A DNA stretch of 64,000 nt from Blasia pusilla (Eukaryota). The stretch's first letter is position 1. Every line of letters starts with the position of its first letter. The position numbers and the translations under genes are program-made. Below, piece after piece: positions 891 through 64,000 of the stretch. The DNA is taken from assembly GCA_050084515.1 (NCBI GenBank), contig CM114271.1, forward strand, positions 11,656,001 to 11,720,000. Reading direction: 5' to 3'. The notes beneath the pieces were generated by a model. The model was given only the letters and a program-made list of their open reading frames with translations. It ran no database searches and was not told the origin of the DNA.

Positions 891-1040
891 CTATGTACAT
901 GTGGGACACATCCATCATTCTTGAGGAACCCTAGTGAGAGGTGGCGTAAAGCATGCCATATGCCATCCTCTCGAACATCCATCACAGACTAGCACGGTGG
1001 TTGCACCACGGGAATAACCACATAACATACATCGCAAGCA
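891..1040 (-). pseudogene. PHD finger at the C-terminus of the gypsy integrase
   Basis: Manual translation CMLCGYSRGATTVLVCDGCSRGWHMACFTPPLTRVPQE*WMCPTCT gives a C4HC3 pattern, in frame after ORF 1056-1574. Confidence 0.9.
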
Positions 1041-1055
1041 TGTAGGAACTACTGC

Positions 1056-1820
1056 TTAGCTCGGATCAATTGTATCATCAATGTTTGGAAGGTGACACGG
1101 CGCATAATTACGCACATGGTCCTTCCAAACCATACAATCATGTCCCTCCAATAAGAGAATATCTGATGGAAAAACCTCACGCATTCTAAAAATGGTGCGC
1201 CCTGTAGTCATATCCAACGTTATGGGTGTCGTCTGTTGCAAGTAGACATAGTCTCCCTGATGAAACCTCCGGATAGTAGGTCCATAACCTCCCTCCCAAA
1301 TAGTCACATACCTCAATGTATCCCGGTGTTGCGCAATCGCCAAGTTCTCAAACGCCATGGGCATCACTCTCCAAAACAATTCAGCCCTCTGAGAATATGC
1401 TCGCATCCAAACATCAGGATCACCAAGGTTCAACACCTCACCAACATCTCGACAAATGGCCATAGGTAAATCAGGCTCTCGGCCATACAAAAGCAAGTAG
1501 GGTGAGAAAGACGCTAGGATGCCTGCCTGTTGAATCTGTATGCCATCACCAACCACGGCAACTGGAGGTCCCAATCTCCTATGTGACCTCTCTGCAAGCC
1601 ATACTTGCGTAGTCCTCTCTTCACCCTATGCACAACCCGCTCCGCTAGTCCATCCGCCTCAACATGATCTCGCAAAGTAGTGCGATGGTTGATCAGTGCC
1701 TGATCACATAAGGCTTGAAACTCCGGCGGAACTCTGTACCCTGGTCTATCAACACCTCAGCTGATGCGCCATAATGACTCAACACTCAATCTAGGAAGGC
1801 ATACGCTACTCCTAGATTTA
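1056..1820 (-). pseudogene. Gypsy integrase core and C-terminal region (N-terminus deleted)
   Basis: GVAYAFLD*VLSHYGASAEVLIDQGTEF followed by FSPYLLLYGREPDLP; joined directly to the end of RT near 1820. Confidence 0.85.
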
Positions 1821-1829
1821 TGCACCACG

Positions 1830-2700
1830 TGGAAGTCATACTCCCTCTACCTTCGTCTACTGCAAACCAAGGCCCCCTGGGTATATTGTATGACCTAGGT
1901 ACTCAATCTGGTTGTAGAAGAACTTGCCCTTGCTTGGATGTAGCTTCAGCCCATGTAACTACAATCGTCAAAATATCTCCTCTAGATGTCGCTCATGCTC
2001 CTAAACCGTGGCGCTAAAGACTATGATGTCATCAATATAACACCTAGCAAAATTCAGACGTGCCAATATCCTATCTATGATCCTCTAAAACTCAGCCGGG
2101 GCATTCTTTAACCCAAATGTTAAGAACCGTCACTGGTACAAGGAATCCTTCCCGTGGGGATAGATGCCCCAAAATGTTGTCTTCTGCCTATCCTCTAATC
2201 TGATAGGCAGTTGATAGTATCCAGCTCAAAGATCTAACCAATTGAAGACCTTCGCATGCCCAATAGCATCAAAGATCTCCTCCGGAGTGGGCATGGCATA
2301 CCTATCGGACTTCATCTGCCGATTGATAGGTCGGTAATCTCCACACATCTGCCTATCCGTCTAGTTGCCATGCACATCCTTCTTGGTGGGCATGACAATG
2401 GCAGATGCATACTCTCCATGCGACATATTCACTAGTCCTACGCCAACCAAGTCTTGGCTCCTACTCTGAATCATAGCCCTCTCCATGTCACTGTACCTGT
2501 AGGGTCGTCGGAAGATCGGCGTGTCACTCGACAACTAAATGTGGATCCCTGTACCCTTCAGCGTACCCAAATCATGCATACTAAATGAAAAACAACTCCT
2601 ATTACTCCTAAGGAACTGGTGTATCTGGCGCCGCTCTCCTCCTTTCAACTTAGGGCCCATATATGGATCCCAAGTCTCCATCATGACTACGATAGGACTA
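1830..2700 (-). pseudogene. Gypsy reverse transcriptase
   Basis: MCGDYRPIN, DRYAMP, KTTFWG, FGLKNAPAEF, CYIDDIIVF and IEYLGH motifs with in-frame stops. Confidence 0.9.
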
Positions 2701-2989
2701 TCTGGCGTGGGTATCGGTGGTTGCTATGGTGCAACCCCGTCTCAAACAATAGAACTCTCATCTCCATGTGCAGTATCCGGAACCACACTCGATGTTGTGG
2801 CTTTCATCTCCTGGCATACCTGCAAAACATCCCAAGAAGTCCAAGGGTGTCTCTCTCGATCACCCCTTGTGTGTAGATCTCCTCAAACTCGCCCCCAGCC
2901 ACTGCCTCAACTATCTCGGTAGGCATGGGGCTCACCAACACAACAGTTGTGATCTGTCGCATCCTCAAACGACGTTGCTCACCTACGCC

Positions 2990-3940
2990 TAAGCTGAAAA
3001 TCCATGTCAAGCAGTTTAGGTCCATCGCCTAACCCAAGCAATGATATCGTGATACCTCTGATAGTGACGGTACTACCGTCACTCCTGTGGGAAATCCCAT
3101 CGCTCGCTCTCGCTCATCGGCGTTGGGCTCCACCAATCTCTATACCTGGTCATCCCAAACCAAGCCAGGTCCGGCCTCCTTCAATGCATCGGAAGTGGGA
3201 AAACTCACAAATGTGGGAAAGGCTGCCCGTGGCATGCCAATCCTGTTGACCATAGTCAATAGCGGTCAATCATCATGCCTCACTGCGTGTGATCAACGAT
3301 CTGGATCTTGAATAGAATCCACCAACAAATCAGAGGGGCGCTCCACTCTAGCATACACCCTTTGCAAGACTTCATGTGGGACCAAGTTGGTCCACCACAG
3401 ATGCGGGCGATGTGCTCTAGACCCTACACTCGACGCATCCAAAAATACTGTTGGGTTGATCCATACGTGCACTTAATGTGCACTCGTCACCACGCGGGAT
3501 CTCAAATCGCCCAAAATTAGCACATTCTCCAGAATGTATGCTGGAGAACGAGACTGATGCTCCTGCAAGTGTCGCAAAATCCGCATCATCTCCCAAAACA
3601 ACCAAGACCAAAAGTCCGCTAATCCGCTACCCCATCCAACACTCGACTGGCCCTAACATGGCCAACGAGCAATGACCAAGTCTATGGTCCCTACCGGATC
3701 CAAGTCTTGCGCACCCACCAATGAAATGTCCCTCGATAGGGAACTCGGGTAACCCCGAATGGCGGACGCACACATCAAGTCGGGAAAATGGAGGCGTAAC
3801 TGCGCCACATGGTGAAGTGAAGCGCGCCTTGCAATATCATCAATCTCCACATATAGGTATTGTTGCACACGCACCCCAACCTGCAAAACAACAACTAACC
3901 CAATGTTGATCCCTCCAAAGAGATCCAACACCCGAATACC
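2990..3940 (-). pseudogene. DNMT3-like C5-cytosine DNA methyltransferase domain within gypsy pol
   Basis: Motif I RVLDLFGGI, II YLYVEID, IV DLVIARWPC(Q>stop)G, VI YILENV, VIII AHRPHLWWTNL, IX ERERAMGFP, X LG*AMD, all in canonical order. Confidence 0.9.
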
Positions 3941-4705
3941 CTTCTCTGGGATGCACCACACAATCGGGGTGGTGTCCAAAGGGATCATACCAGCACTCTT
4001 GCCTACCTGGGATTCCTCTGACCCGTCACACTCTAGTGCAAACATCTCGCTCCACACGGTCTGCACTCGTTCAGTGGCTAAGCGTCGAAGCTCCTTAGTC
4101 AAGCCCCAAGGCGCCACCTCTCCTCCACAGACTGATGCGGCTACCATTATACTCCTCTCCATAGAAATGTCAAGAACGTGAGTATCCTCTGCCTGGACAT
4201 GTCCCTCAATCAAATCACTAGGCCAAGTGATGGCATTGCTAAATGCTGCTAAGATCGCCATCTCTGTTGGCCGTCGCTCGATCACTACACTTGTGAATCG
4301 AACACGTACACAACTAAGGCGCCCATCACCTAATTGCCATCGTGGTCTGTAGGACACTTACTTGTCCCAGTAATCCAAGGAAAACCCCATCGGGTGTAAC
4401 ACTGCTCCACCAACCAAGACGTCGTAGGACTCTACATGAGTCACTATCGCCTTGGCTTGCACCACGGACTCATCTGTAGGATGTCCTAGACGAATCCTCA
4501 CCACAACCTCCTATCAGATGATATACTGTGTGGTACTCGCTCCACCCAAGGATGTCTATATCCAGAATGGACAACGTTCCACAAAGGCACTCGCCAAGCC
4601 CAATCCTCTGAATGATGCTTTCCCCAACATCATGGGTTGTGCTCGTGAATCCAACAAGACGCATTGCGGACTAAAAGCTCTATCTCCGGGACTCACCAAC
4701 TAGAA

Positions 4706-5235
4706 GGGGGATGGTATTCTGGCAGGAGAGAGGAATAGAGGAGAGTCTCTCTTAAAAAAAATGCACTAAAGGGAAAAAAACTGAAACTCTCTTCAAAAAA
4801 TATGAAGATTATGGATAATAAGCAAGTAATTTTTTTGGAGATTTCTTTTGAAGAGAGGAAACTTAGTGTAACCCGACGGGTTGCAATTTTTTGAATTTTA
4901 TTTTTTTTGGTTAAGGAAAATTTTTCATTTTTTTCCAAAACCAAAAAAAGAAAACATCAAAAAAAGTTGCAACTCGTTAGATTTTGACGGCGTGAAAAGG
5001 TTTAAAAATTGGAAAAAAAATCCTCTTTTTTTTCCACCACCAAATTTTTTTGGAAAAAATTTTCCTTTTTAACTTGTCGAAACTTTCCTCTCTCCAACAT
5101 GTAGGAAACTCACTTCAACCTGTCGGAAACTCTTTTCAACCTGTCTGAAACTCTCCTCAAACCAAAAGAGCCCTAGGTGTTGCCAATATCTTCCTCTCTC
5201 CTCTCTTCCTCTCTTCCTCTCCTCTTATCGCTCCT
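4706..5235. mobile_element. MITE / non-autonomous Mutator-like element inserted into the gypsy protease region
   Basis: Begins GGGGGATGGTATTCTGGCAGGAGAGAG and ends in the inverted CTCTTCCTCTCCTCTT..CTCCT motif (tip lost). Flanked by CCAACTAGAA (4696-4705) and CCAACTGGAA (5236-5245), which duplicate the gypsy F-Q-L codons, i.e. a 9-10 bp TSD. Confidence 0.8.
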
Positions 5236-8200
5236 CCAACTGGAAGACCTCTCCCGGGTTATCTAGCAACACAACACCAAGAGAAGCCATGGCATGCTCT
5301 ATCGTGGGTCTAGCGGGCATCTCCGCCAACCTAGCAGCCGCAGTCTACCTTGAATCTGACGTGGGCGGCTTGAGCATCCGCTCCAAGGGCTGGTCCATCA
5401 CCTCCTCTGCAATCACCTTGGAACGTGATGCAAGAACTCCAACTCCACACTCACATAACCTTGGCGGGCGTACCTCCCAACATCATAACATCGGAAGCAG
5501 AAAATAAAGGAGTGCGATACACAACGGTGGCCGCCCCCAACCGACACATGCCCCTCCTGAGCATCAGCAATAGGAGTCGTCGCACTTGTTTCTCCCATTC
5601 CCCTCCATGCCTGCACACCAATAACATCACCAACTCTCCGGGAACTCTGATCAGGACCCATCGATGGGGTCCTCATTGCCTCAGACAACGTGAAAGACTA
5701 AGGAAGCTTGGTCTGCTTCCTTGCTTCCCTTTGTTGTGGATCCAACTCTACGGCTGCTCCATGTGTCACAATTGCAGCGGCCTCCATCTGGGCAACCCTG
5801 CACATCCAACCAGGATCCTCCATATCTCTCGCTGCTCCATATGATGTCGATGCCACGGATCCGGCATCGGGTAACCTCAATGCCATAGCGGCAATCTGCT
5901 TCGGTAGCTGCTGTACCTGAGCAGCCATCCCAGCCTCACGCCCAATATATCCCTCAACGCTTCTAGGTGGTGGGACTCTACCTCCTCCATTGGCAACTCC
6001 ACCACCCTGTTGGGCAACTCCAACTCCTCGTCCCCCAACAGGACCACCAGGTGCATGATCTCTAGGCCAACCCGGACCGGCTACTTGCTCTGGTGCCCTC
6101 TCTGGCCCTTGGTCCGGACGTAACTCAGGGTGTAAACTAAAACACCTCGCGCGTGTGTAACCATACCTCTGACAATAATCACATTGATAACCTCATGGTG
6201 TAGCACCATCTCCTCCTCCATGCTGAGGCACACGTCCATGACCTTGACAAGTGCAATCATGTTGATGATGGACTCTACTACATGACGAACAAGTAATCGT
6301 TGGCGGTAGCTTTTGAGCCGTAGGTCTTTGTGGCTCGGCCTCCCGGTACCCTCCCTGAGCTTGTGGTGCCACAATCCACCTATCTCGGAGTCCACGTTGC
6401 TGCACTGGTGGTGCAGACAATCGTGATTGCTCTTGCCCAGAACCCATGGTGGCTACGCTCTCCTCTGCCATGTTGCACTCAATATTCTCGGCGGTCCTAA
6501 AAACATCTCTCAATGTAGGGGAGGTGTTCATAAGAAGCACCCCCCTCCCGCACGCGGGTCTGCAGGGTGTAGTCTAGCATCATGTACCATAACTGGATAG
6601 CTTGAGCCTCTATCACCCCCTGAGTGACGCTGATCAACCGGTGGAAGCGAGTGTAAGCCTCACGCAAACTCTCATCTGGGCACCTTTGGAAGTGGTGGAT
6701 ACTTTGCAACTTCTCCGTCCGTACCCCCTGGTAGCTCGCCCTCAACTCAGCGAAGAACTCAACCACAGGGTTGAACTTGGGACGAACTTGACTAGACGGT
6801 GCAACTGCTCTAGTGCGAGTGACCCCTCCTAAAGCCTCACTAGTGGAAGAGGAAGTAGCCTCTCTTGACTCTTCCTCCTCATCTGGGAACGGCTCCGTCC
6901 ATGACACATAGTGTGGGTCATAGTAGAGTTGCCATGCCTCAATCTCTTGGGCATATTTGTGGGAGAACTCATGATAACTGTCCATGGGCACCCCCCCTGT
7001 GAGTCACACCAACTCCTAAACTCTGCAATAAATTCATGTAGCTCTATAATGCCTACAGCACCCGCAAACCTATGCGGTCCTCTACCCCGGTCGTCCATCT
7101 CATATGCCCAACTGGTAGGACCACTCAATGTGTAAGGTGGATCACTAACACACTCCTCTACACGGTCCCCCTTGTCTGAAGACGAAATTGAAGGAGATCG
7201 AGGTGGTCACTCACGCGGAGACCCTCAAAACCTCGCACCACTCTGGGTAAACCCTCGAGAGCTACTCTCACGTCCACTACCTCATCCTCAAAATCCCGAA
7301 AGGACACCATGATGGCCCTTGTGCCCCTCTCACACGATCACTCTCAATCTTGCGAGTAATCCCTCAATCACTTAAACTAAACATGCGGCACTCAATCTAG
7401 ACTCTCTCACTAAGACGTGTGTTGTGCGGCAACAAGCAGCGTGGTGCATCAAATCAATTGATCTATCGTTTTATCGATAAACCATCCTCAACTCTAGACA
7501 TCTAACACAGGTCCATGTCCCCTAAACCCATACATCATCGATGCTCCTAGCATCAGCATGAAACCCAATATCCCAAATTACTTCCTAATACCCAGAAATC
7601 CCTCACACGTGTAGGGTAAGAGACCATAATGGGGAACCTGAAAATAATGTCGATGTTGCTCCTCGAAAATTGCAAATTTCGACCCCAACTCGGTCGTGGA
7701 GACAACTCCTCCAATCAGCAAGTCGTACTCCTCTTGTACGAACACTGTTCAAACCTCCTCGATGTGCGGCGCAGGTCCAGTGGTCCGGTGCAGCATTGGC
7801 GGCACAGAACGGCTACAAAGGGCACGACACTCGGGAATGGGATGCGGCACTCAGCGGCATACCCTCCTCAATCAGCAATTCACATGCTCTGCTCCTTAGT
7901 GAAGGAGCAGCTCTATGATCGAGATGGTGCGGTGGAGCCACGAGCGGCATGGCATGGCAATCAGCGACACGTTGCAGCTACGGGCGTCACGGCACGGTAC
8001 TCAATCGTTATCGAGCGGCTACCAATCACGACATAGCAACATGAAATGAAAACTCAAACACCATAACCCAAGGTCACATGCCATCATTGGTTGATGACAA
8101 ACCTGCGATGACGGTGGTGGCCAGACCAAAGTATGTGGTGGCGGTGCAAGTCAGAGAATAAATGGTGGTCGTGGAAGACCCTCCAGTCCGTAATGGCAAC

Positions 8201-9534
8201 CAAAGGGTGGAAAAAGGATGAACGCGGCTCTGAGCAACGCTAGGCGGCAGTAGCGGCCGATGGTGGAGGGGGCTGGTATTCTTGCAGGAGAGAGTAAGAG
8301 AGGAGAGGAAGAGAGGAAGAGATCGAGAGAGGAGAGTCTCTCTTAAAAAAAAAGGGCAGAATCTGCCTCCTCTCGTCAAAACTCTCCTACAAACATCCTT
8401 CCATCACTCTCTATGTGAGCCCAATTTTCTTCACATTGCCTGTCAAAGCCAACGCTACAATAAGCCAGACAGAGGGGTATTATTGTTGGAGGACCATCGG
8501 CAGATAATTTGACTCTTACTATGGTCTCAATAGACTCCTATGCCCTTCAAGGTTTAACTTCTCTGAAGATGTGCTTGACATTATGGATTGTTGACTCTTC
8601 TTGCAAAAGGCATTAAATATCCCATCCGATCAATACTCATCCATGAGGGGGTTTTCCACAACAGAACAAATCACTCATCACTGATGGTAGCTGAAGACTT
8701 TCATGACATCATTGGATGATGTTGGCTCATGAATGGGTGCATAAAGTATACCATGGACTGCTATGCGTTTGACAACTTGGTTTCACCATTCTCTCAGCCA
8801 CTAAGAAATGTATGCATCAAGAAGAAAATGTGATGAGATTGAGAAGACAATTGAACCAAAAGGTTGATAGTTGTTTGGAGTAAAGAGAACTGATGTACCC
8901 ATGTCCCTTCATTCAGACCCTAAATGTTGGAATCCGACAGGTTGCACCCCTTCCAACCCGTCGGAATACGATGGGTTGCACCCCTTGCAAGCAAGCACAC
9001 CACAACAAAAGAATGATCTTGATAAGTGATTTCATTCCGCCCTACACCCCATGAGAATCCGAAAGGTTGGGAATCCGACATGAGAATCCGACATGTAGTA
9101 GGAATCCAACACGTCTCTGAAATACCGTGTTAGAGAAGAATGGTGTGACGATAATGGGGGAACGAGGCAAAATTTTAAAATATTGTGACAAGTTGCAACC
9201 TGTCGAAATCTGACGAGTTGCAAAATAAACAGCCTCGAGTCAACACAATCAACACGAAAGAAAAACAATTCAGCAAAGGTTTACAAAAAGAGTGGGATCA
9301 CTCAAGCATCCAACCTGTCGGAATCCGACAGGTTTCCGGAAAGGGGTTAAAAATATTGTGACAAGTTGCAAGCCATCAAAATCCGACTAGCTGCAAAATA
9401 AACAGCCTCGAGTAGATAGATCAACACAATCGACAAGAACGAAAAACAATTCAGCAAAAGTTTACAAAAACCATCATGGTTCAAAAACTTGTCCTTTATT
9501 ACATCCGAGGGAAGCTCATAAATGTACATTTGAT

Positions 9535-12500
9535 CTAGTCTATGATTTCTTCAACCTCGTCATCTACAAATTTACTCTTAACTCTCCTAGGTTCGTGTAC
9601 AAAAGGAATATCTTGGGATACAAGTGGCTCCTCTGGCCGATTGTAGACGGGGATCGTAAATGTTGGGGAGTTCGAGAGCCTTATCCCTCCCCTTGGGTAC
9701 ACTATAACGGTCCCATGTAACATGATTTGAGTCCCAACACCTTCCTCGACAGTAAATCTTGTATCCTCTGCAAGGTGACACACATCCAGTATCAATATGT
9801 GCTCCGTCCTTGGAAAGCACTCAATCCCTACTCCAAAACGCTTCAGTGAAGTTGGGTCCAATAAATCTTTGAAATCACTTGTCATCCTCCGATAGCTCTT
9901 CTAGATTACTCTCGGCTTTGCCCTCCCGATTTTTGGACTAGTAGGCAGTGACGATGGTGTTACTATCAATGGTGGTTCTGGAACTGGAGCTGTTGGCTTT
10001 GGAGGAGAGTTGTATACTCCCACTAGCCTCTCGTAATTTGCCTTTGCCTATTTGCAAAGGTCAAAAAGTTCTAGCCTTCCCTCAAGGCAGAGAATGTTCC
10101 TACCATTATGCTAGGCGCCTCTGATACTCGCCCCTGATAGACCCACTAAGTCAAAGACCGAGTCACCTAGCCTTGAGCAGAGCTCGATGAGCATTTGCAT
10201 CAAGGCAGGTGACTTCTCCCTTCTTCCAAGTAAGGGGATCCCATCCTGCATGTAAATTCCCAGGGGGGAATTGTGAAGACTATCTAAGCTATACCTATCG
10301 GAGGATGGATCCACTGGATCCGGGATCTTGAACACCTGGAAGTTGTGATCGGGCCTTACAAAGCAGTAGACAAATAAATGGTCTATCTGTAAACAAGCAG
10401 GTGGAAAATAATGTCAGCAAAAAGAAAAAGCTAGTAGACCGGTGATCTACTCTTAATATAGTGACACAATGTGCAACCCGTCGGGATCCGACGGGTTGCT
10501 CATTTGGCTAGGCAAAGGCGCAACCTATCGGAGTCCGACAGGTTGCTTTTCAACCCGTCATACTAGTCCATAGTGATTACCAACCCGTCCAAACCCAAAT
10601 ACAAATCCAAATACCCGTCCAAGATGAGCAACCCGTCGGAAGCCCACAGGTTGCTATCGGAGTCCGATGGTTGGCTTACAACTGAATACGATTGTTTAGA
10701 TTTGAGAACTTCTAAATATGAGAGCAACCCGTTGCTTTCAGACGGGTTGCATCACTCCATAAACATGTGGAAAAGTAGTGCTACTTGCAACCCATCGGGT
10801 TCAGACGGGTTGCAGTCAATGGAGACTAGTTGGTGAATTTGCAACCCATCTCTTTTAGACGGATTGCAACACCGCAGACAGAAGCTATTGGGATCCGAAA
10901 GGTTACATGCAGAAATGCAACCCGTCACGTTGAATTTTTGTTCAAAATCAATTCGTTGAAAAAGAGGACTTACCTGGACTTGAGTCGTCGCCGATCTGAG
11001 TGGATACTCATTTTTAATGACCCATGATTGCGCCGTCCTCCACTTTAGCGACCTCTTCACGCACTGAAGGTTGAAGAGCTTGTCTTCTCTCCCTCCAGTG
11101 AGGACCAAGAAACAACCCCTGTCACTCAGATACGCGTTTGCAAAAGAAAACAACAACGCGATGTGGTCGTACGAAAGCGGGACATTATAGTCTGGGACAG
11201 TGGCAGACGGATTGTTGTCCCACAAGCAAAACCCAAAAGGAAAATCCGAAATGAGGAGGTCCACCACCATCTCCTTAAGAACCCCATGCACCGTCTAAGG
11301 GGCGTGGCCGTTTCGAAGGAATTTTCATCCCAGCACAGTCAATTTGTCGATGGCAGGTGTCGACTCCTCAGAACTGAAACTCTGCACTCATCGACAAGAT
11401 GAGCCAAGTGAGTAAGGATATTTGTCCTTGTGGTTGTTTCCCTATGCTTGCCCAAGTATGATGGAGTGTATTCCATATCCTTATCTCCTCCCTCAGACGA
11501 ACCAGGTGCCTCCCGCTTTTGCTTCTCCTGAGTCTATTGTCGGCTTGTTGGAGCATACTCATACTCCACAAGAGTTTTCTTGGACGAGGACATGGTCCGG
11601 ACGACCTTTGCCACCAACTCCAACCTTTGCCACCAACTCTATTGTCTCGAGGGCTTGCTCCTCCATATCTCAAATCATCAAGCTTCACGAAGTCGGAAAT
11701 GTCGTCCCTACCTACAACCACTGCATCATTCACCACGCATAGATTTTTTTCTATAATGTCCTCTGGGTCGTTGAAGTCCAACCAGATTGGAGAATTGATA
11801 ACCTCCCAGTCAAACATGCCATGTCCCATCTCCATGTCGTACATGGAGAATCCCTCTCCATCAGGCGGAGAAGCCCATAATTTGCAGGCTGCCGGTAATT
11901 TTTGCCAGGAACCTGCATTCATACAATTGATGAGGTACGTGTACACCATCCGCTAGGCAGCTCTTTGTCGAGATGACTCGGCCGCCTTGTCCTAAAGATC
12001 CAGCTTCTTCTTTGCAAAATCTCATTTTCTGGTGTCTATTTCCTCATCCAGGTATGCCTAAGGGAGGATGTGATTCTTGAACATCATCATGAATCCTGGG
12101 TTTTTCGTGAGCTAATCTCTAATGTCATCAAGCCATAGTTCAAAATCTTCTGCAGCCTCTAGGTTTGCTTCCTCTGGAACTGGCTCAATCTTCTTCAGCT
12201 CCGCTTGTAGACCCACAATCATGGAGTTCTTTAGAAGGCGCAACGCGTCCCAAAATGACCATTCCCGTAGCCTATGGGAGATGACTGGATCTGAAACTCC
12301 CAGAGGGTAGTGTGCCACTCGCTTTTGGGCCTCTGTGACCTCGAGACTAATTTTCATCAATCGGATTTGCCTAAAATCGGATATCCTAGATAGCGCAAAC
12401 ATGTGCACGCCGTTCAGAGACACTTTCTCTCCGATCCGACCTTGTGGATCTTCGTCTCTCTTCCGCTGGCGCTTGATTATTGCCTTGAGCTCCTTGTAAA

Positions 12501-12830
12501 ACTCCGGGCCAAGTTCGGGGTTGAGAATCGCAATGTAACGCGGCATCTTGCTTGTAGTGTACTTTGTAGCTGCACATACGGCAGCCTGAATAAACTTTGC
12601 ACGCTCTGACGCTGACACGTTCTCCCTTCGCTCCAGTTCCAACGAAGCACTCTTCTTAGCGACCTGGATCTTGGACCAATATAGGATTGTGACGGCTGCA
12701 TTTTGGGAAATGAAGGTATTTGCCTAGGTCTTCTTTTTTATTTGAGCTCGCTTCGCCAGCATCTCATTTACCAGATCGTCGCCCAAGAATCCCTTATACT
12801 CTGTCGGGTGCGTCGTAAGCACCTTCTTCA
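9535..12830 (-). pseudogene. Large multidomain gene with a beta-class N4C/N6A (N6_N4_Mtase-like) DNA methyltransferase domain; one intron at 10387-10973
   Basis: Motif IV VDLLISDFPFG, then AYLSDRGCFLV and SWVIKN; after a phase-0 GT-AG intron, EKSPALMQMLIELCSRLGDSVFDLVGLSGASIRGA*HNGRNILCLE (motifs X-I-II). ORFs 12112-12642 and 11368-11949 share one frame, and 10111-10335 and 9535-9885 share one frame. Confidence 0.75.
10470..10930. repeat. Cluster of TGCAACCCGTCGGANTCCGACGGGTTGCA-type palindromes inside the MTase intron
   Basis: For example TGCAACCCGTCGGGATCCGACGGGTTGC near 10472 and GCAACCTATCGGAGTCCGACAGGTTGC near 10520; further copies at 8925-9400. Confidence 0.9.
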
Positions 12831-13799
12831 TCCTATCGCAACCATTTCGGATTCCCAACTTGTTGGATTTTCGTGGGTGCAGGGTCGAAGGAAATCACTT
12901 CTCAAAATCTTTCCTTTCTTATGGTGAGCTTGCTTGCAAGGGATGCAAGCCATCTGATTTCGATGGGTTGCAAGAGTTGCAACCTGTAAAGTTCCAACGA
13001 GTTGGGAGGGGTGCAGCTTCTCGGTTTCTCTGATTTAGGATCTGAATGAAGGGACATCAGTTCCTCTTTACTCCACACAACTAACAATATTTTGGTTCAA
13101 TTATCGTCTCATGTGTTCACATTTCACAAAGTTGGTCTTGAGCAGACACCACTCATAACCAACAGAAAGTTGTTTATGAGGCAATTCAGGGGAGGCCATG
13201 ATGCAGGCAACAATCCTTGCAAAAAGAGAGGTTGGCATCGTACCGATGCGCTTCCGGGTGGTCCTCCAACAAAAATACCCATGGGCACTGCTTATTGTAG
13301 ACCAAGACATGCAATGTTAAGAAACTTAGGCTCACATGGAGAGTGATGGAAAAATGTTTGTAGTGGTCTTATGATGTCTACTTTTTTTTCGCCCCTTGGA
13401 AAAAGGAGGTTTCTTTAGGCCCGAATGTGGACCACTACCTACTCTCTTTTAAAGATTTCATGAATTTGAAAGCAAACAGAAATTTCAAATATGTCAAAAA
13501 GTTTTGAAGAGAAGAGGCGGATTTGGCCCTTTTTTTTCTAAGAGAGACTCTCCTCTCTTCCTCTCTTCCTCTCCTCTCTTACTCTCTCCTGCCAGAATAC
13601 CAGCCCCCCGCTTCCGCACGCCATTCTCCTGTACAAAAAATCAACAATGAAAAACAACAAACTGAGCGGCCCTTGCTTCCGTGAGTACTCCCATGACCCG
13701 CTGAACGGGGAACATGGTCCCCAACTTGCACCAACAGCAAGCTCTTCCATTGAAGCTCTCTCACTCCATCATTCTCTCTATGTAAATCAACCAAATCAC

Positions 13800-16000
13800 T
13801 CCATCACGATAACAAGGTCTCACACCAAGCTCTCCATGGTGTGCACTCTCTCTCATGTCAAACCAAACCCACTCTCCTAATGAGAGGCTTGGGTTGCACA
13901 TACAAGGCAAGGAGGACCATAGCTCCGCTGCTTCATGCCTAGAGGTTCAACAAAGAGAGAATGAGCTCTCAAGCTCTCTCTCTTGGGGGTATATCCCCTT
14001 CCCTCTCCCAAACCCTATCCACGGTAACCTATGCTCGCAGGTCACCTCCTTGGCTCTTGACGTATTGAAGCAGTTCAAAGGACACTTCCCAAAGTGGAAA
14101 GTCCACTATACAAAAAATTTACCCAAAATAGTAGGTTTCTCAATATGGCTCCAAATAAGCCAAAAAAAAAGGGAAATCTATTCTCATAAGTTATCCGTGG
14201 CCTTATGAACCCTACCCACAATTTTGAACTTTTGAAGAAATACATCTTTTTTTTCAATGAATATTTATATATACATTATGATTTTGATTATTATATATTA
14301 TTATGGGAAGGAATGAGTAAGATTAAAGTGAATCACGAAGCTCCAAGAACAAGACAGAGAGATAGAAAATCAAGGATTTGCCTAAGAGGAGAGGAGAATA
14401 AAATAACGAAGTCTAAGGACCCAGCAAGAAGCTTTGGAAGGACAACGAAGCTCTGTTAAGCTCTGTCTATGAAGTGCTTCGCGCTATAACGAAGCATAAC
14501 GAAGCGTAAGAGAAAGAAGTACTTCGCTCTTGAACGAAGCTCGAAGAACGAAGCATGTGAAACAAGAACAAAGAATAGAGCGCTTCGTCTTCAGATCAGG
14601 AGAAAGAGCTTCGTCCTCAAGCGAAGCAAAAGAGGTCCGGACTTAGCAGCGAAGCGAATCTAAGATTGACAATGATTTCAAGCGACACATAGTTAGAACA
14701 ATTAGAATAGGAAAAGACACAACCCTTTGTATCAGATTGGTAGTTATGACAATTTTATTCTACGGATTCATAGGGATCTTAGGAAAAGAAAAGAGCACCA
14801 TAGATCTAGGTAGTTACAAATGTTGAAGAGACACCAACTTCATAAAAAACGTTTCGAATCTTTGGATCACTCCTCCTTCAGAGAGCATTTAAGAAGCATA
14901 GAAGTAACTATCATCATCATTCTCTTACAAAGTCCTTATGTTGTAGGAATGGTCCGAGCAAGGGGAGTAGTACCCTCTTGAGCTTGTATACCCTTTTGAA
15001 GCTTTCTCATTCTTGATGGAGTAGTAAAGCAATCATTCATTCATTCTGATGTGTGATGCTTATGTTTGAGTATTCTTTTTGGGTCTGCAGAGTGAAGAGT
15101 GAATCAGGCAAACCTTTCTCATCACTGGAATAATCAACATAAAGTTGTGGGAAATCTGTTTGACAAAGAGTAGCATGCCGAGACGGATTGAGTTCCGAAA
15201 GTAGGAGAAGCCAGCTTTCATGTTGAGGTCTCTGTGAGGTTTCTTGATATCGAGAGGAAATCTACCCAAACATGTTGTCAACTCCATTAGAGAGAATTGA
15301 GAAAAGAAACTTTGGTACTAGGAAAGATCCGAAGATATTGATAAGACATTGAATATAAATCATACACATTTAAATACAACTATTACAACAGAATTGTAAT
15401 TTCGAACTGTCTTTTCATCAAACGATGATCCTCTTGGGGATCGAACTTAGTAAACGACTGTAAAATAGAAACTCTTGTACATTACACCTTAGTAAATCAT
15501 CCTCAACCTCTTGAGGCTGTCCTCCAGTATCTTCGAAGATGCTTTACTAGATCTCATCGATCTATCCTCATAGATGTGACATCGTCGATATGCACCCAAA
15601 CACACTCACGTTAGTGTGATCTGGGTCAATCGGCACTAACCCACCAAGTTCTCGACTCCGAAACTCATCAAACTCAACCTTCCCTCATTCCTAGGTTCCC
15701 AACACGGGCAAGTCTCAGAAGACTTGGGACATACTTTCTGGTTAGTCTAGGCACCTGAAATGACGTTTGCGTGCCTAGCGGTCCCAACTGTCTGATGGAC
15801 CTCGCATGAGCTACCCACCAAAACTCAATGATATGAGTCACAGGTTAGAATCCAATAGGGACCTCCAAAATCCACTCTATTGGACTTGGTTTGGGTTTCG
15901 AATCCCAACGCCAAAACTCTGGATCCATTCCGTGCCCTTGAGTCGCCTCGCGGTGCCCAAAGTGGGATTCGAGTCCCAAGCATCCTTGGAGATCTTCCCC
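13800..16000. repeat. Dispersed repeat family, interrupted by the solo LTR
   Basis: 13850-14205 and 15487-15580 match about 115-580; 15660-15810 matches 46020-46170 in inverted orientation. Confidence 0.75.
14206..15486 (+). mobile_element. Solo LTR related to the LTRs of the 17.1-25.1 kb gypsy element
   Basis: TG...CA termini, perfect CCTTA TSD (14201-14205 and 15487-15491), colinear with 17151-18378. Confidence 0.92.
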
Positions 16001-18388: not shown

Positions 18389-21300
18389 TGATCAACCCAT
18401 TGGCTTTAGGGTTGTAGGGCGTGGTCTTCCGATGCTTAATGAGAAAGTGGGAAGTTAGAGACTCAATAGTCTTGTTCAAGAAGTGGGTGCCACGATCACT
18501 TACTAATTCCAATGGGTAGCCATACCGAGTGATAATCATTTCGTATAAAAATTTGGCTACTGCCTCACTGTCATCTTTTCGCGTGGCCACCGCCTCGACC
18601 ATCTTGGTACAATAGTCGGTGGAAATAAGGATATAGCCGCCGTATTTGGCGAGTAGCGGGGGGATAGGGCCCACAAAGTCAATACCCCATTTTTCTAAAG
18701 GAGCTAGGGGCATGATGGGTACCAAAGGCCACCGCGAGGTAGCCGTTGGTCGACCTGCTCTTTGACAGGCATCACAACTTTTGATAAAGTTACCTACATC
18801 TTTGAACATAGTTGGCCACCAATAATGTGCGGCCAAGATTTTCTTAACGGTATTTTTTACAGCGTTGTGTCCACCAGAATCAACCCACATGCATGGCTCT
18901 GATGACGTGGGGGATTTCTTCTGCTTCCAAAAATCGCCGATACTCTTCATCTGCACCTAATTTGAATAGTATCCCCTGACATATCTCATATGGTCCTATC
19001 TTATGCAAAAAGACTACTTGTTCCTCCGCTGTCATAGGGGCGGGAAGTCGCAGAGTAATTAAAAAGCGCAAAATATCTTCATAAAAAGATTGGCACAACC
19101 GATCCTCCGTGATCTGGAACAGGTCTTCATCGGGAAAGGTGTCATCCACGGATTCTATGAGGTCCGCGTTCGTCATCCTCAACCGGGAAAGAAAATCCGC
19201 ATTGGTATGAATCTTGCCGGCACGGGTAACGACATCAAATGTGAATTCTTGGAGCAACAGGATCCATCGCGCAATGCGACCTGACAGGTCCGCCTTTACC
19301 ATTAATGGTCTGAGCGCGAAATGATCTACATGGAAGACAAATTCGTACCCTAATAAATAGTGTCGGAACTTTTTACACGAGAAGACCATGCCTAGCGCCT
19401 CTCATTCGGTAGTTGTATATTTCTGCTCCGCTGAATATAGTTGCCGGCTTGCGTAGTAAACCAGGAAGTCATGTTTATTTTCATCAAGTTGGCTGAGCAC
19501 CACTCCAATGGCAAACGAGGATGTGTCCACATATACGTGGAAGGGTTTGGTCCAATCGAGGGACCGAAGTATAGGAGCCTTTTGCAATGCTCCCTTTAAG
19601 GCGTCAAATGCCGCTTGGCAGGATGGGGTCCACTCTCATTCGGTAGCTTTTTTAAGTAATGCGGTAAGAGCTCCTGCTTTCACTGTATAATCTCTAATAG
19701 ATCGTCGATAATATTCGACGTGTCCCAAGAATCCTCTCAATTCTCGGAGATTGGTGGGTGGTTCCAATGCGACAATAATATCCACCTTGGCCTTGTCGAC
19801 TTCAATTCCTTGAGCTGACACTCTGTGCCCCAACAAAATCCCTTGTTTCATGGCAATATACAATTTTTCCAGATGGAGGGACAAATGCACTTCGCGACAA
19901 CGAGCGAGGTTTAATTCTAATTTTTTGAAGTGTTCGGCCTCTGTACTGAAGATACAAAAATTGTCCAGGAAAATTTCAACAAACTTCCGCAGATACTCTT
20001 GGAAGATGGAGATCATCATTCGTTGGAAGGTAGCTGGCACATTGCATAACCCAAAGGGCATCACACGATACGCGAAAGTTCCCCAGTCCGTGGTGAAAGT
20101 TGTGAGGGGCCGATCTTTTTCTCGTATGGATACCTGGTTATAACCCGAGTATCCATCCAAAAAGGTATAACGCTCGTGGCCAACAACTTTGTCCAAAATA
20201 CTATCAGTGAAAGGTAGGGGATGATGGTCTTTTAAGGTGGCCGAATTTGATTTCCGATAATCCTGGCACACTCTGATTTTTCCCGTTTGTTTTTGGGTAC
20301 AATCACAATGGGAGACACTCACTCGCTACTTAACATACGATAAATTATTCCTGCCCAAAGACGATGGTCGATTTCACCCTTGACTAACAACGAGTACTTC
20401 GGGTTGAGGCGATACTGCCTCATCCGTACCGGGACCGCACCTTCTTTAGGTCAATTCGATGTTCACCATACCATGCTAGAATGCCTGTCATTTCATCCTT
20501 GGAGTATGCAAACACATCTTAATACTCGAACAACAACGTTTTATACTTAATGAGTTTGGTTGGAGACAAATCCGCCGAGAGGAGTAGAGACTTCTGACCT
20601 GTAATTAAGACTTGTACGTAGTCCTTTTCTTGAACCATGTTTTCTGTGAACTGGAATATGCTATTACCCAGCTTCTCTTCCTCTCGCGTCGACTTCTGTT
20701 TGCTAGGTACCGACTCCTCGTCTATTTCATAACATTCTAAATAATACACATTGGACAAGGACTCAGTAGCTGTAGTTTGCTCTTGATCTGACCTATAGCC
20801 TTCATCGGTCGGTGGCGTTTCTCCTTGGGGTGGTCGTGATTTCCACGACACCTTGATGAGCCACTTTGAGACATGGTCCGGAGCCTAGAACGTGAATCGT
20901 CTCCTTTTCTAGTCCGTAGTCACTCTCGCACCGTACAACCATGGTCTTCCAATAAGCAAAGGATAGCCAGTGGCTGTTAGGGGTTGCAATACTAAGTAGT
21001 CCAACAGAAATAGCATCCCGCCAAGCATGGTCGAGATCTGAGTGAGCTGTACGAGGGGTCGCTTCCGGGACTGATCCGCGAACCGCAGATACTTGTCGGT
21101 GGGCTCGTACTCCGTGTATCCTAGTGCCCGGGCCGTCTATTCCGTCATAATGTTAATTCCGCTTCCTGAGTCAATGGGGACCTTCTTAATGGTGTGTCCC
21201 TCAATCTCCACTTCTACCTCTGGTGCTCCCAAATCTTCCACTTCGATACGTAACAGATCCACTACTGGTAGATTCTTTGCAGACTTCTTGGGTTTTCTAC

Positions 21301-23809
21301 GGCTTATCTTCCACTGCTGCAAAATTTTGCCGTACATAGGGTTATCCATTAATAATTGCAGCAGGGTTATATTGGCCGGGGTTGACACCAAGTCCCTGAG
21401 TAAGTCGTAGGCTTCTAAGACCAAAGGTGACGTCACGATGGCTTGCACTGCCCGAGTCGTTCCGATTCTCGTCTTCTCTATGGTCTACCTCCCTTCTGGC
21501 CCCTAGTCGTGACGCACTTGAGCCCGAACCTGGTCCTCGATATCCTGATGGAAGTACTTAGGGTGACTTCGATCGAAGGCCGGGTCAACATCGCCTTTTA
21601 GGATGGCCTTCCCGACACGGAAGGCATCGACACTTTTCATCTTGGGGTCTTTAGCTTCGCGCAAAGACGAAGCATCTTTCCTTGCCTTGGGGGTCCCAGC
21701 GGTCTGATTCTTGGACCTCGTGGTGACAACAAGAACGGTGTCTTGGAGCTCCTTGGGCCAGTCCGATGATTCTTTGGCCGCCGTTCTGTCCGAGTCCTCC
21801 TCCCTGATAGTGACTCGCCTTGGCCTGGGGGACCCTAACTCTTCCACTCAGACGAGTTGCACATTTACGTCATTCTTGGACTCTGGTTGGGCTGTTGGGG
21901 TGTTGACATACTTTACCAACAACCGCGGGACCTTGGGCTTCGGGCATTCCACTTCAGTGTGCCCGCCCTTCTTGCAATTTCCGCATAATGGATTGAGTCC
22001 TATTGGCCGCTTTGGATTTGGGCAATTATTAGCCCAGTGGTCAACTGCCCCGCAATTATAACAACAATTCCTTTTTATGGGTGGCGTGAAGGCTGCCGCG
22101 CCCATAATCTGTCTTAGGGGTCTTTTTTCCCCGTATTCTGGAGGCATATATTGGGTGATCCAACTTCGTCCGGGATTGGGTGGTGGCACAGCTTGGATTG
22201 CATAGCACCCTTCCCACTGTTCGGGTTCATACCACCCTTCTTCTATAGTTGGATCTTCCTAGATCCAACGTAAATCCCTCTGAGTATGACATTCCTGAGC
22301 AGTATGCCCTTGGGTCCGTAGGTACTGCACCAAATGTTGGGCCTCATCCGACCTGGTCATCTTCTCGGATCCTTCGGTGCTTGGGAGAGTGGTGGCGCGT
22401 GCTTTTTCTTTTCCGCTTAGATTTTAAATCTTTTTCGGAGTCCGAGGACTCCGAAGTGTCCCCCATAGAGGATTCCGTGTCTGTGGAAGACGCTTCGTCC
22501 TCCGACAAAGCACTAGTTTGCGAAGAACCTCGTCGTTGGTGACGCCATCTTCGTGTTTTACGGGACTTCTCTGAGGCCTCGTACGCCTCTGCGGAGGCTA
22601 TGACTGCTTCCAAGGAAACTTGTTAGCCTCGCCGGCAGTACCGGTCCATTTCTTTGGACAGTCCTGATACAAACCAATCTACCAATTGTGGGGTAGTAGT
22701 GTGTTCAAGTTTATTCACCAAGCTTCAAAACCTTTGGGTGTATTCCCTGAGAGTTTCCTTCTTTTTACGTTTCAAGTCGCGAAGCTTTGTAAGAAGCCTG
22801 TCCTCGAACTCTAGGTCGCGGAACTCATGAAGAAAGGCCTCCAATTGCCTTTTCTAGGTTTCCGTGACGTCCGCTCCGAGACCCTCATACCATTGGCTTG
22901 CTCTCTTCTTAAGCAGGCTAGGAAATACTCGCAACAAATCCTCCTGTGAGCCTTCCCCATTAGCCTTGGCTACATGGGTAAATTCAAGCACAAAGTTGTC
23001 AACATCATCTCGCCGTCCCCCTGCAAACGTGGGGTATCTTAGTAGCGTCTTCATAGTGTTGGCCATTGGGAATGGTCTGCTGCTGGGTCCCGGGCTTGAT
23101 GCTCGGGAGGGAGGAGGCAGCGGTTCCGATCTAGTTGATTTGGTCGGCTCCAAGTCCCCAAGTCCCCAAAGGGGTTCCAGGTTGACTCTTCGTCCGACTG
23201 TGAACTGGCAGGAGACGTGGTGGGGAGCGTATTCTTATCCCTCTTCTTGCTCTTGGGCTTCGTGCGAAGACAAAGACTGGGAGACACCCCAGGCGGTCTC
23301 TAAGACGGGTGATCTTCTTGTTGCTTACTGCGTCGATCAGCTTGCTGATCTCGCGAAGAGGGCCGAGAGACTTCCATGAGTCCCTTCTGGGATTCGGGAG
23401 CTTACTTCCGCACCCACGGTCACCACAAGGTAGGGGTCCATGGAGGGAAATTAAATCTTCCTAATTCCTAAGCCTGCACGAGTGTGCATGTGCTCTTAAT
23501 CTTCCTGCCAGGTTTTCCTCCCATAAACAGAAGTTCCGGGTCATCATCAAGTACAACTGACGATCATGGGCGAGGCACCGTTCGGTGACTGTTTTTTTTT
23601 ACAATACTAATTAATTGTTCTATCTTTTCTAGCATCGATGCAGCAAACCGGTTGTTATCTTCTTTCATCTATTGTCTGAGGGGGATAGCTAGAGATAGCA
23701 GATGGTCTTCAGTAAGAACTAGCTGGTTGGGTCTTCTAGGAGACGAGGCTTCTTTCCCCGCTCTTGGATTCCCCATTTGTCTCTCTCCCTCTTCAGCAAA
23801 GCTTATGAT

Positions 23810-39344: not shown

Positions 39345-41953
39345 GTTGTGCAGCAAATGAAGCAAACGCTTTGCTCTCTCTACTGTTTATCTAACTCTAG
39401 TGCTCAACAATATCTATATATAGATTTTCCTTCATATTATTGTTGGAGTAAGAAGACAGGGATTCCTAGGATACAAAATATAAATGGTTGTGGTCATCCC
39501 ATTAGCCGCTTATACCTTACTCATCCAGGTAAATACTAGAAAATCCTTTATAAATAATTTTCTTTTATATACCGACCTCAACAAATAGTGTATTTATATC
39601 GGGATGAGTTAATTATTCTACTTCTTCATAGGTGAAGGAGAACATCATTGGTTGAGATTACTCTTCCATCATGTTCGAGGAGCAACTACATATGAATGCT
39701 TAAAAACTGTTCATGGGGTAAAATGTTCAACTTTTAAGGAGGCTCCTATCCAACTGGGACTTCTTGAGGATGATAGAGAAGTCTTCTCTTACTTTGAAGA
39801 AGCTTCTTTGATCCGTACAAGTTCTTCACATTGCCGTCTTTTTGCATTTATTCTAGTGTACAACACACTTGCTGAACCTGCAAGACTACGGAGTCAATGC
39901 TTGGTTCCATTGGTAGAAGATCTCTTATATGAGAAATGTCATATAAGAATTCATTATATCATTCATTTTCCTCCTAATAGTATCCTCTATTAAGTATTCA
40001 ACATTCCTAATTGTATCTTCTATCATTCAACCTACTAACCATGATTTGGGACATTTTTGGAACTCTCCAATTGTAGAAAACAAGACTTTCTAATCCTCCC
40101 GTTGATGATGCCATAGTTATTATTGCATTTTTGGAAGTTCATTGTTATTTACAAGATCAAGGAAATAGACTGTCTGAATTTCCACACATGCCCCAAGCTA
40201 ATTTCCAGAGCATTCATTCACATTCATATTTGGAGGAACAAGAGCTATTATATGATACGAAAGAATTATTTGAGCAAGTGCAATTGGGAGAAGCGTATCT
40301 TAATGAAGGACAACGTATTATTTGGGACGCTATACATGATGAGCTTGATCAAATATGTGCGAATGCTCTATCATCTCCGAAAGTATTTTTCAATGACAGT
40401 CCAAGTGGAACGGGAAAAACCTTTTTATATAATTTTCTCCTTGCAAGTATAAGGAGTGCAAGAGGTATAGCTTTGGCCATAGCGTCATCTGAAATACATG
40501 CTCTATTGTTAGTCGGAGGATGTATTACTCATTCATGCTTCAAGATCCCCATCAATCTTCATGAGAGCCCTACTTGTAAGTAAGTGCCATTAGTCATTCT
40601 AACTAGCTTGAATTATGTTCATACAGAAATTTGAATTACTCCAAGTATTACAACTTCCAATATACTTCCATTTTTTGTTTGTAGTTTATCAGTGGATAGT
40701 GATGGAGCGCGCTTAATACATGTTGTAATACTCATTATATGGGATGAAGCACCTATGGCTCATCGTCATGCATTTGAAGCCGTAAAATCAAACTCTACGA
40801 GATATGATGGGAGTTGTTTCAGATGATCTACGTCAAATACCATTTGGTGGAAAACTTATGGTATTTGGTGGTGATTTTTGTCAAGTGTTGCATATTGTTA
40901 GTCATGGGGATCGGCCTCAAATCATCCAAGCCACCATAAAGAGGTCATCTCTTTGGTCTAATGTGAAGGTCATGAAGTTGACAACAAGCATGCGAGTTCA
41001 AAGATTGGAAAGTCATTTGCTCAATGAACAACAAGCGTTTGCTGATTGCTTATTGGAAGTGGGAGAGGGTCGTATACCTTTGCATCCTCATTTGGGAGAA
41101 GACTTTATACGATTACCATCGGAAATTGTTACTGAAAGTAACAAGATATGCGATCTTATTGATATGATCTATGGCAATTTTCCTAACCGATTCCATGACA
41201 TTGATTTCTTGAGAGATACAACTATTTTGACTTTGAGAGAAATAAATATGTTGACGACATAAATACAGACGCTATGTCTCGGTTTCCTAGAGAGGTATAT
41301 ATTCTTAACATATATTTGTTTTCTTATGGGAATTTTATTTTTGGGAAGTTTGTATATTAAAAATATTTTTTCTCACAAATTCATTGAATATTGTGTAAAT
41401 GAGCATATTTACCTCAACGTCGACTCTATTCCGAATGAGGGGATGAATCATATCTATCCAACTGAATTTTTGAACACATGCTTGCCATTTTGACTTCCTC
41501 TCGATCATTTGTGTTTGAAGATTGGTGCACCAATCATGCTGTTATGAAATATGAACACATGGACAAGCAAACGGAATAAGATTGGCGATTCATGGATCTA
41601 TGCAACATTGCATTGATGCTGAGATTATCATCGGGAAGAATATTTGCGATCGAGTCTTTATTCCATGTATCCCATTGATTGCACCAGATTTAGGTTTGCC
41701 ATTTGATTTAAGGAGGTTTTAGTTCCCTATTCGACCAGCTTTTGCTATGACTATTAATAAGTCTCAATGTCAAACTTTGCAAAAGGTTGGCATTTACTTG
41801 CCTACTCCAGTATTTTCTCATGATCAATTATATGTAGCGTTATCTAGGGTAGGGAAGAGAACTTCGATCCACATTACCATTGGAAGCGATGAACATTCAA
41901 ATATGGAAGGTGACTACACATGAAATATAGTGTATAAAGAGATACTTGAATGA
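39345..41953 (+). pseudogene. Helitron-type PIF1 helicase (3' part of RepHel), decayed, with introns
   Basis: LRLLFHHVRGATTY, LGLLEDD, Walker [56 protein letters not shown] and NIVYKEIL. No Rep motifs seen. Confidence 0.9.
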
Positions 41954-42418: not shown

Positions 42419-44292
<1,874 letters not shown>

Positions 44293-61200: not shown

Positions 61201-61524
61201 GTTTTCCCACCACAAGTGCAACAAGTGTTTTATGGAGATGCTGATGAGGATGGAGGATGGAAAGTGGGAATGAGGAAGGAAGCTAGAGCTCGGAGAGTTT
61301 ATTTTGATGAGTCACTAGATGGAGCTTGTAATGCTCTGCCCACCTTCTATGCCACATGCATGGAACCACAGAATCTACCAGATGCAAGCACCTTAGGAGC
61401 TAGAGTCCTAAGTGATGCAGAAATGGAAGCAACTAGAAAGGATGTGCAGCATGTGCAAATAATCCATGTATGCGATATGGTAGAAGATATTCATTCAGAC
61501 TCTAATAACTCAGAATTAGATTAG
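58227..61524 (+). pseudogene. CACTA/En-Spm (TnpD/TNP2-like) transposase, decayed
   Basis: IHACPAGCVLF, CPLCG, DGVNPF...STWP...NYNLPP, LWTIHDYPA, HMLDVMHVEKNI, KVPSGY and the C-terminal PFVFPPQVQQVFY...W. Element termini not identified. Confidence 0.9.
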
Positions 61525-63936: not shown

Positions 63937-64000
63937 TGCCCTTGGCCTAGTGAGCCAGTTTATCCAAGCATCTCGAAAACTTCACCTTAATGTTGTGAGG

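Follow-up and report, generated by a model that had tools for sequence, protein, structure and literature searches.

The stretch of the Blasia pusilla genome analysed here (GenBank assembly GCA_050084515.1, contig CM114271.1, positions 11,656,001 to 11,720,000; 64,000 nucleotides, hereafter the window, with coordinates counted from its first letter) carries a decayed Ty3/gypsy retrotransposon whose coding region includes a DNMT3-like cytosine-5 DNA methyltransferase (DNMT) domain. All coding segments of the element lie on the minus strand. A single frame, 4510-2800, runs from the tail of the aspartic protease (PR; VLVGGAVLHPMGF, with its end reading …VLVGGAVLHPMGFSLDYW) on into the methyltransferase, and no intron is needed to read across. 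The catalytic domain (2981-3982) presents motifs I (LDLFGGINIGL), IV (ARWPC, with the Cys kept), VI (YILENV), VIII (GSRAHRPHLWWTNL), IX (ERERAMGFPTGVT, including ERERAMGFP) and X (LG*AMD) in the normal, non-permuted order, and an alignment with 39 relatives places these motifs, column by column, in the conserved columns of the family. When the window copy was translated through its stops (with X at each), Pfam recovered PF00145 (E 7.4e-6, 26 bits against a cutoff of 22; relatives score 35-54 bits) and, downstream of it, the reverse transcriptase (RT) family RVT_1 (PF00078, E 5e-23). The Pfam matches and the motifs in conserved columns consequently establish that the methyltransferase is real and not a chance resemblance. 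PWWP and ADD, the reader domains of host DNMT3, were not found by Pfam in the window copy or its relatives, and the window holds only one DNMT copy.

An earlier note, made from the letters of this DNA, had placed a cytosine-5 methyltransferase at 2990-3940, between PR and RT of a Ty3/gypsy element, on the same strand and without introns. The frame reading and the Pfam matches bear this out: the PF00145 search that it proposed gave, on the read-through translation, a score above cutoff, the motifs were recovered, and its span agrees with the measured domain. To this we add that the element lies on the minus strand, that eight stops interrupt the PR-DNMT frame, and that RT is read in a different frame from DNMT.

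The rest of the element was mapped by tblastn with a Marchantia gag-PR-DNMT protein (P0116) and with both open reading frames (ORFs) of an intact relative, L038. The gag region, broken over several frames, occupies 7083-5653 (P0116 residues 9-490; frame listing) and contains a CCHC-like knuckle at about 6183-6142 (CDYCQRYGYTRARC), with Tyr in place of the expected His. The N-terminal part of PR lies at 5449-5237 (tblastn, P0116 residues 553-622 and P0001 residues 65-137) and its C-terminal part (…VLVGGAVLHPMGFSLDYW) at 4361-4705 (frame reading, tblastn). Between them, about 530 bp of low-complexity DNA (4706-5236) has been inserted into the protease, with the relatives' residues 620-622 represented on both flanks. 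A linker of about 125 residues (3983-4357) then joins PR to DNMT; no Pfam family matched it, and it is kept in relatives, with 100% query coverage by P0001, P0116 and P0115. The catalytic domain, delimited by Pfam, alignment and structure-sequence searches, carries six of the eight stops of the 4510-2800 frame (first bases 3655, 3475, 3295, 3268, 3142 and 3031), one of them directly after the PC of motif IV and another within motif X.

Downstream of the methyltransferase, the tail of ORF1 (2727-2980) is followed by the stop that separates it from ORF2 (TAG CAA CCA, 2718-2726) and by the ORF2 start and RT (1839-2723), which has several stops and matches residues 22-301 of L038 ORF2 at 2678-1839 with 56% identity. 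DNMT and RT are read in one frame in intact relatives but not in the window, so one or more frameshifting indels must lie between about 2876 and 2726. A deletion junction at 1806-1839 marks the loss of the equivalents of L038 ORF2 residues 301-732 (tblastn), that is, of about 430 codons comprising RNase H (RH), the zinc finger of the integrase (IN) and the first half of the integrase core. What remains of the core (1806-1517) and the C-terminal region extend over 1059-1806 (frame listing, tblastn), and a PHD finger with one internal stop (894-1055; PF00628, E 6.6e-6) forms the C-terminus of the integrase and the end of ORF2.

Two candidate remnants of long terminal repeats (LTRs) flank these segments on the same strand. 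The putative 3' remnant (63-579), cut by the window edge, is 77-80% identical to 13793-14203 and 15487-15579, and repeat comparison delimits a putative 5' remnant at 13793-15579, which contains about 1.3 kb of additional DNA and is kept apart from gag by an insertion at 8268-13608. The assignment is tentative; the level of identity would make the element a very old insertion. A 75-nt direct repeat (1-75 and 637-711, 96% identical, 636 bp apart) was also noted within the candidate 3' remnant. A search for tRNA-Met primer-binding sites gave four matches, against 5.2 expected, none of them near the element. The element has a CpG observed/expected ratio of 0.62, against 0.61 for the window as a whole, a comparison that does not discriminate past methylation. 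With eight stops in PR-DNMT, a frameshift before RT, the deletion of about 430 codons and the insertion of about 530 bp, the window copy is long dead, and it lacks the open frames and complete enzymatic domains of an active element.

The affinity of the methyltransferase was examined against solved structures. The window domain matched DNMT3A (E 2.9e-11), DNMT3C (2.8e-9) and DNMT3B (4e-8), followed at a distance by tobacco DRM (0.0059) and Arabidopsis DRM2 (0.02); M.HhaI, DNMT2 and DNMT1 do not appear among the matches listed for this sequence. A profile of the family preserved the ranking, with DNMT3A (4e-23), DNMT3C (8e-22) and DNMT3B (9e-21) ahead of tobacco DRM (1.7e-15), Arabidopsis DRM2 (3e-11), M.HhaI (6e-8), DNMT2 (4e-7) and DNMT1 (0.04). 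Furthermore, an AlphaFold model of the relative P0004, which is 61% identical to the window domain (pLDDT 82.3, pTM 0.84), retrieved the catalytic domains of DNMT3A, DNMT3B and DNMT3C in a fold search (E about 1e-18, target TM 0.78-0.84), at identities of 19-24% among the listed matches. The score ranking and the predicted fold indicate that the window domain has its nearest affinity with DNMT3, ahead of DRM, DNMT1, DNMT2 and bacterial enzymes, as the earlier note had proposed from motif resemblance and motif order. It shares that order with the animal DNMT3 enzymes, from which it differs in its low identity, in lacking PWWP and ADD and in residing inside a transposon polyprotein. The plant DRM2 type is the second-best group in the profile searches; its motif order is permuted, whereas that of the window is not. 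A protein atlas built on language-model features, which returned one streptophyte cluster plus phage methylases, was uninformative.

A word-index search, which returned only members of the family, recovered 114 homologs of near-equal length and 29 longer ones, the best of them 51-64% identical, with named members in Marchantia polymorpha (more than 20 gene models), Calypogeia fissa, Riccia sorocarpa, several Sphagnum species and Klebsormidium nitens. The long homologs contain CCHC, PR and DNMT, plus RT and RH where the ORF runs on. One of them, P0151, is an uninterrupted ORF of 2240 residues with the order PR-DNMT-RT-RH-IN; a continuous PR-DNMT-RT frame of the kind that the earlier note asked for exists outside the window. 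Relatives were also encoded in 238 of 345 candidate stretches of JGI metagenome contigs, and 80 loci were kept. Most metagenome copies are decayed as well: among 37 longer loci chosen from the 80, an ORF of more than 500 residues across DNMT was present only in L038 and L037. An exhaustive search of 1.84 billion representatives returned 552 proteins at E<=1e-30, and among the best 150, all at E<1e-74, no host DNMT3 was recognisable. The order gag(CCHC)-PR-RT-RH-IN is complete in L038 and P0151. The relative L004 has a plain LTR pair (94.5% identical); no LTRs were found for L038 within its contig. Marchantia models P0116-P0126, P0131, P0132 and P0134 appear to be transposon ORFs, listed in public annotations as hypothetical or as 'DNA (cytosine-5)-methyltransferase'.

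Selection was measured in relatives. The DNMT of L038, L037 and L041 gave Ka/Ks values of 0.10-0.14, and ORF2 gave 0.059 between L038 and L037, at Ks above 1 (ORF2 values involving L041 come from a short partial alignment and are not relied on). DNMT in the relatives' elements is therefore under purifying selection. The earlier note had supposed that a lineage similar to that of Klebsormidium exists in this land plant, and would have given up the idea had sister copies lacked the domain or carried it out of frame. P0151 and L038 carry it in frame, the selection is purifying, and named liverwort and Sphagnum members share both a clade and the domain order with K. nitens proteins. The gypsy-DNMT elements constitute a lineage in which DNMT is a regular, selected gene module and not a one-off capture.

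Phylogenetic trees of the DNMT domain place the window within this lineage. In a tree of 88 rows the window falls in a 30-row clade (100% support) with sequences of Calypogeia, Marchantia and Sphagnum; it lies outside the subclade (95%) of those liverwort and Sphagnum sequences, on a long branch (0.42). As judged from these sequences, the placement is compatible with a land-plant host. Domain order was then mapped on 155 proteins (143 new representatives from the exhaustive search and 12 earlier matches), which present either transposon architectures or a DNMT domain alone. Architecture A, that of the window (PR-DNMT or DNMT-RT adjacency), was found in 16 proteins; architecture B, RT-RH-DNMT-IN-PHD (RH-DNMT or DNMT-integrase adjacency), in 94; and the DNMT domain alone in 45. 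On a tree of 206 rows, one branch with 99% support splits A from B, so that one change of architecture suffices, where shuffles need 34.7 on average. Clade A comprises 80 rows, none of them B, and includes the window together with the Klebsormidium proteins P0108 and P0282, in line with the kinship to Klebsormidium elements that the earlier note had supposed. In P0108 of K. nitens the DNMT is followed by the start of RT, the order seen in the window. Besides the two K. nitens proteins, named A members come from four Closterium strains, and a named B member is P0236, the 'pol' of Scenedesmus sp. PABB004. The chlorophyte-type elements represented by P0236 have a related DNMT and the same PHD-tailed integrase backbone; they differ in having the DNMT between RNase H and integrase and in falling on the other side of the 99% split.

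One B member, P0140 (from an ENA contig), contains some 350 extra residues after the PHD finger (about 1880-2234) with a DPFSG-type motif reminiscent of a second S-adenosylmethionine-dependent methyltransferase, for which Pfam gave no match at E<=0.001. Dual-methyltransferase elements in the available text of a 2026 preprint (10.64898/2026.05.21.726589) offer a comparison.

As regards identity and architecture, it is very probable that the window holds an old, inactivated Ty3/gypsy copy belonging to a lineage that carries a DNMT3-like enzyme and includes the KnitGypsy-Dnmt3 kind of element. It is exceedingly improbable that a fragment of a host DNMT3 gene or mRNA was captured once by a single gypsy copy, or that a host pseudogene came to lie among retrotransposon pieces: the heavy rearrangement of the window copy (insertions 4706-5236 and 8268-13608, deletion at about 1806-1839) makes a chance juxtaposition conceivable in principle, but the PR-DNMT-RT order and the same linker recur in dozens of elements of other species, one change of element architecture accounts for its distribution on the DNMT tree, the DNMT modules of elements show purifying selection, and the domain has neither an intron nor a PWWP or ADD that Pfam could find.

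The layout of the intact relatives adds a second feature. Their ORF1 encodes gag(CCHC)-protease-DNMT and is closed by an in-frame UAG followed by CAR-YYA, after which ORF2 encodes RT, RNase H, integrase and PHD finger. In L038 (9317 bp), ORF1 (976-5082, 1369 residues) and ORF2 (5086-8226, 1047 residues; RT, RNase H, integrase zinc finger, integrase core and PHD) share one frame, with one TAG between them. The stop falls at exactly the same codon in L038 and L041 (both TAG CAG TTA) and in L037 (TAG CAA TCA), at 5083-5091, 2081-2089 and 4661-4669, respectively. The contexts vary at synonymous-like positions while CAR-YYA is kept, as selection on the signal would predict. We surveyed the first in-frame stop upstream of RT in the 53 of the 80 loci with an RT-start match. 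TAG CAACCC was found in 19 loci, TAA CAACCC in 12 and TAG CAGTTA in two, with single cases of TAG CAATCA, TAG CAACCA, TAA CAACCA and TAA CAACTC; TAG or TAA followed by CAR-YYN thus accounts for 37 of the 53, another 11 have other first stops, and five have none within 45 codons. One fixed offset is shared by 34 of the 48 loci with any upstream stop. The window junction reads GCA CCA TAG CAA CCA CCG, and its TAG (2726-2724) matches this offset. Annotated Marchantia ORF1 proteins stop 79 residues past DNMT, which fits the same stop.

The hexamer context of the window and of the intact relatives corresponds to UAG-CARYYA, which the available text of PMC5382211 describes as the type I signal for read-through in tobamoviruses, among others. 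A conserved stop after DNMT makes the enzyme the C-terminal module of the upstream product and not a domain in the middle of pol. The earlier note had described the domain as embedded in pol; the intact relatives, in which DNMT ends ORF1 ahead of the conserved stop, do not support that description.

We propose that most ribosomes would halt at the UAG and release Gag-PR-DNMT in Gag-like amounts, and that a minority would read through it to produce the full polyprotein with RT and integrase. The conserved position and context of the stop render this read-through step likely. Its link to Gag would carry the DNMT into the virus-like particle, and the enzyme could then methylate the new cDNA, or the new insertion and its surroundings, either inside the particle or, once cleaved by the protease, in the nucleus; this idea was put forward in 2018 (PMC5890265, available text). 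That the element methylates its own cDNA is a tentative suggestion, to which we give somewhat less than an even chance. The PHD finger of the integrase probably reads histone H3 tails and would in this way steer the choice of integration sites.

The stop could also be something other than a programmed leaky codon, with ORF2 expressed by splicing, by reinitiation or from a subgenomic transcript, or with stop-bearing forms being non-autonomous and in need of continuous-frame relatives. Such explanations would accommodate the commonest junction context, CAACCC (31 of the 53 loci), which lacks the final A of CARYYA, as well as the occurrence of TAA in 12 of these 31 and in 14 of the 37 loci with CAR-YYN. 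They would also accommodate the continuous frames of P0151, P0186 and five of the 53 loci, by which read-through is in any case not universal. Yet L038 and L037 have diverged to Ks above 1 with both ORFs open and constrained and with the stop at the same codon in a CAR-YYA context, ORF2 continues the frame of ORF1 and lacks its own start context in these elements, and the TAA forms sit in otherwise decayed copies. We consider a non-leaky stop unlikely. Gammaretroviruses have a comparable arrangement in which gag and pol are linked by read-through of a UAG. The window lineage resembles them and the tobamoviruses in placing an in-frame UAG between an abundant upstream product and the polymerase, and its hexamer context matches the tobamovirus type; it differs in that the putatively leaky stop follows PR and DNMT instead of separating gag from pro-pol.

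With respect to the substrate, the DNMT may act in trans on host chromatin, on rival transposons or on RNA and not on the element's own cDNA. It could, for example, mark target regions, mimic gene-body CG methylation to evade silencing, or damp the element's own expression after integration. DNMT3-type enzymes work on chromatin, the same element has a histone-reading PHD finger, and a position in ORF1 would predict an abundant protein, beyond what a particle-bound role needs. The fusion to Gag-PR would argue for incorporation into the particle; the present data do not separate these substrates, and action in trans is a possibility that we hold at a little under an even chance.

Returning to the reading of the window copy as a dead member of a lineage with DNMT3-like enzymes expressed at Gag level, several points weigh against it. 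The description of the domain as DNMT3-derived is based on score ranking and fold. Only a single copy was seen from this genome, and it is dead, and the LTR assignment is tentative. The CAACCC and TAA contexts and the stop-free forms described above count against a uniform leaky stop. Read-through, packaging, the DNMT substrate and the role of the PHD finger are deductions, and the yeast assay of the Klebsormidium DNMT was inconclusive according to its authors (PMC5890265, available text).

De Mendoza et al. (2018, PMC5890265) already described gypsy elements of this kind in Klebsormidium. In the available text of that paper, KnitGypsy-Dnmt3 of K. nitens is a gypsy LTR element with an intronless, non-permuted Dnmt3-type domain that evolves under purifying selection, and its Ka/Ks below 0.2 resembles the 0.10-0.14 of the relatives studied here. 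It was described as an acquisition 'in the K. nitens lineage' with DIRS-like repeats, in contrast to the plain LTR pair of L004, and it differs in host, the window grouping on its long branch with liverwort and Sphagnum sequences. The same text contains no mention of an ORF1/ORF2 stop, of a PHD finger (zero occurrences of PHD), of Marchantia or of Sphagnum. It also treats SymbioDIRS-Dnmt3 of Symbiodinium, which showed de novo CG methylation activity in yeast, as an independent acquisition. That element likewise has a Dnmt3-type domain in a retrotransposon polyprotein; its backbone is however of the DIRS type with a tyrosine recombinase, and its host belongs to another group. Chromoviruses, gypsy elements with a chromodomain at the integrase C-terminus, provide a parallel to the integrase tail. 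They share with the window lineage the position of a chromatin-reader module, which in the latter is a PHD finger instead of a chromodomain and is accompanied by a DNA methyltransferase.

Two more recent sources, as far as their available texts extend, refer to such elements. A 2025 survey (PMC12344493) cites retrotransposon DNMT3 'in streptophytes' and sampled only Arabidopsis and Physcomitrella among embryophytes, and the 2026 preprint (10.64898/2026.05.21.726589) cites 'streptophytes (Gypsy-DNMT3)' as prior work. Our literature search found no report of gypsy-DNMT elements in land plants or Scenedesmus, although subscription journals and supplements may hold one, and the only earlier description found concerns one charophyte alga. 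The breadth of the lineage from bryophytes through zygnematophytes to chlorophytes, the two architectures and the conserved stop after DNMT did not turn up there either. We would give an even chance to a broader proposal in which a PHD-finger gypsy family, ancient and spread across the green lineage, has the DNMT3-like enzyme as a core gene, and of which the window copy would be a fossil. In this proposal the gag-PR-DNMT/UAG/RT-RH-IN-PHD form would extend from Klebsormidium and Closterium to liverworts and mosses, its sister form RT-RH-DNMT-IN-PHD would occupy chlorophytes, and the streptophyte form would express the DNMT at Gag level ahead of a leaky stop.

Hosts fight transposons chiefly by DNA methylation, and a transposon with its own methyltransferase consequently inverts the usual picture. 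Members in Marchantia, Riccia, Calypogeia, Sphagnum and Closterium, together with a sister form in Scenedesmus, suggest a long-lived strategy instead of a curiosity. The lineage occurs in organisms with genetics and methylomes, such as Marchantia, in which function is testable, and the conserved UAG after DNMT provides a concrete prediction about enzyme amount. If the broader proposal is true, transposon-made DNMT3 could supply bryophyte genomes with a sizeable amount of de novo methyltransferase activity that has been overlooked. In Marchantia, more than 20 DNMT-containing gene models are apparently ORFs of transposons; these should not be counted as host methyltransferases and could inflate host DNMT counts.

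The remainder of the window is rich in transposons. The insertion at 8268-13608 is a unit of about 5.3 kb with inverted arms (8268-9082 against 13608-12843, 71-87% identical) and ORFs on the minus strand (10752-12723), and looks like a DNA transposon inserted upstream of gag; if the LTR assignment holds, it would interrupt the leader of the gypsy-DNMT element. About 40 nt at one end of the 4706-5236 insert recur in the arms of this unit (90-92% identical), and the insert could therefore be a short piece derived from that transposon. A second gypsy element (18393-22258, minus), with RT, RNase H, integrase and a CCHC gag, has only about 31% identity with the DNMT lineage over RT-IN, and no DNMT was found in it (18393-20274). 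A pair of Helitron-like helicase ORFs, three stretches resembling copia and a large series of transposase-like ORFs were recognized at 40077-41262, 51009-52264, 54032-57419, 62478-63950 and 58427-61524. Finally, a short ORF piece at 42949-43100 (plus) resembles ribosomal protein S3 and may be an exon or a pseudogene fragment.

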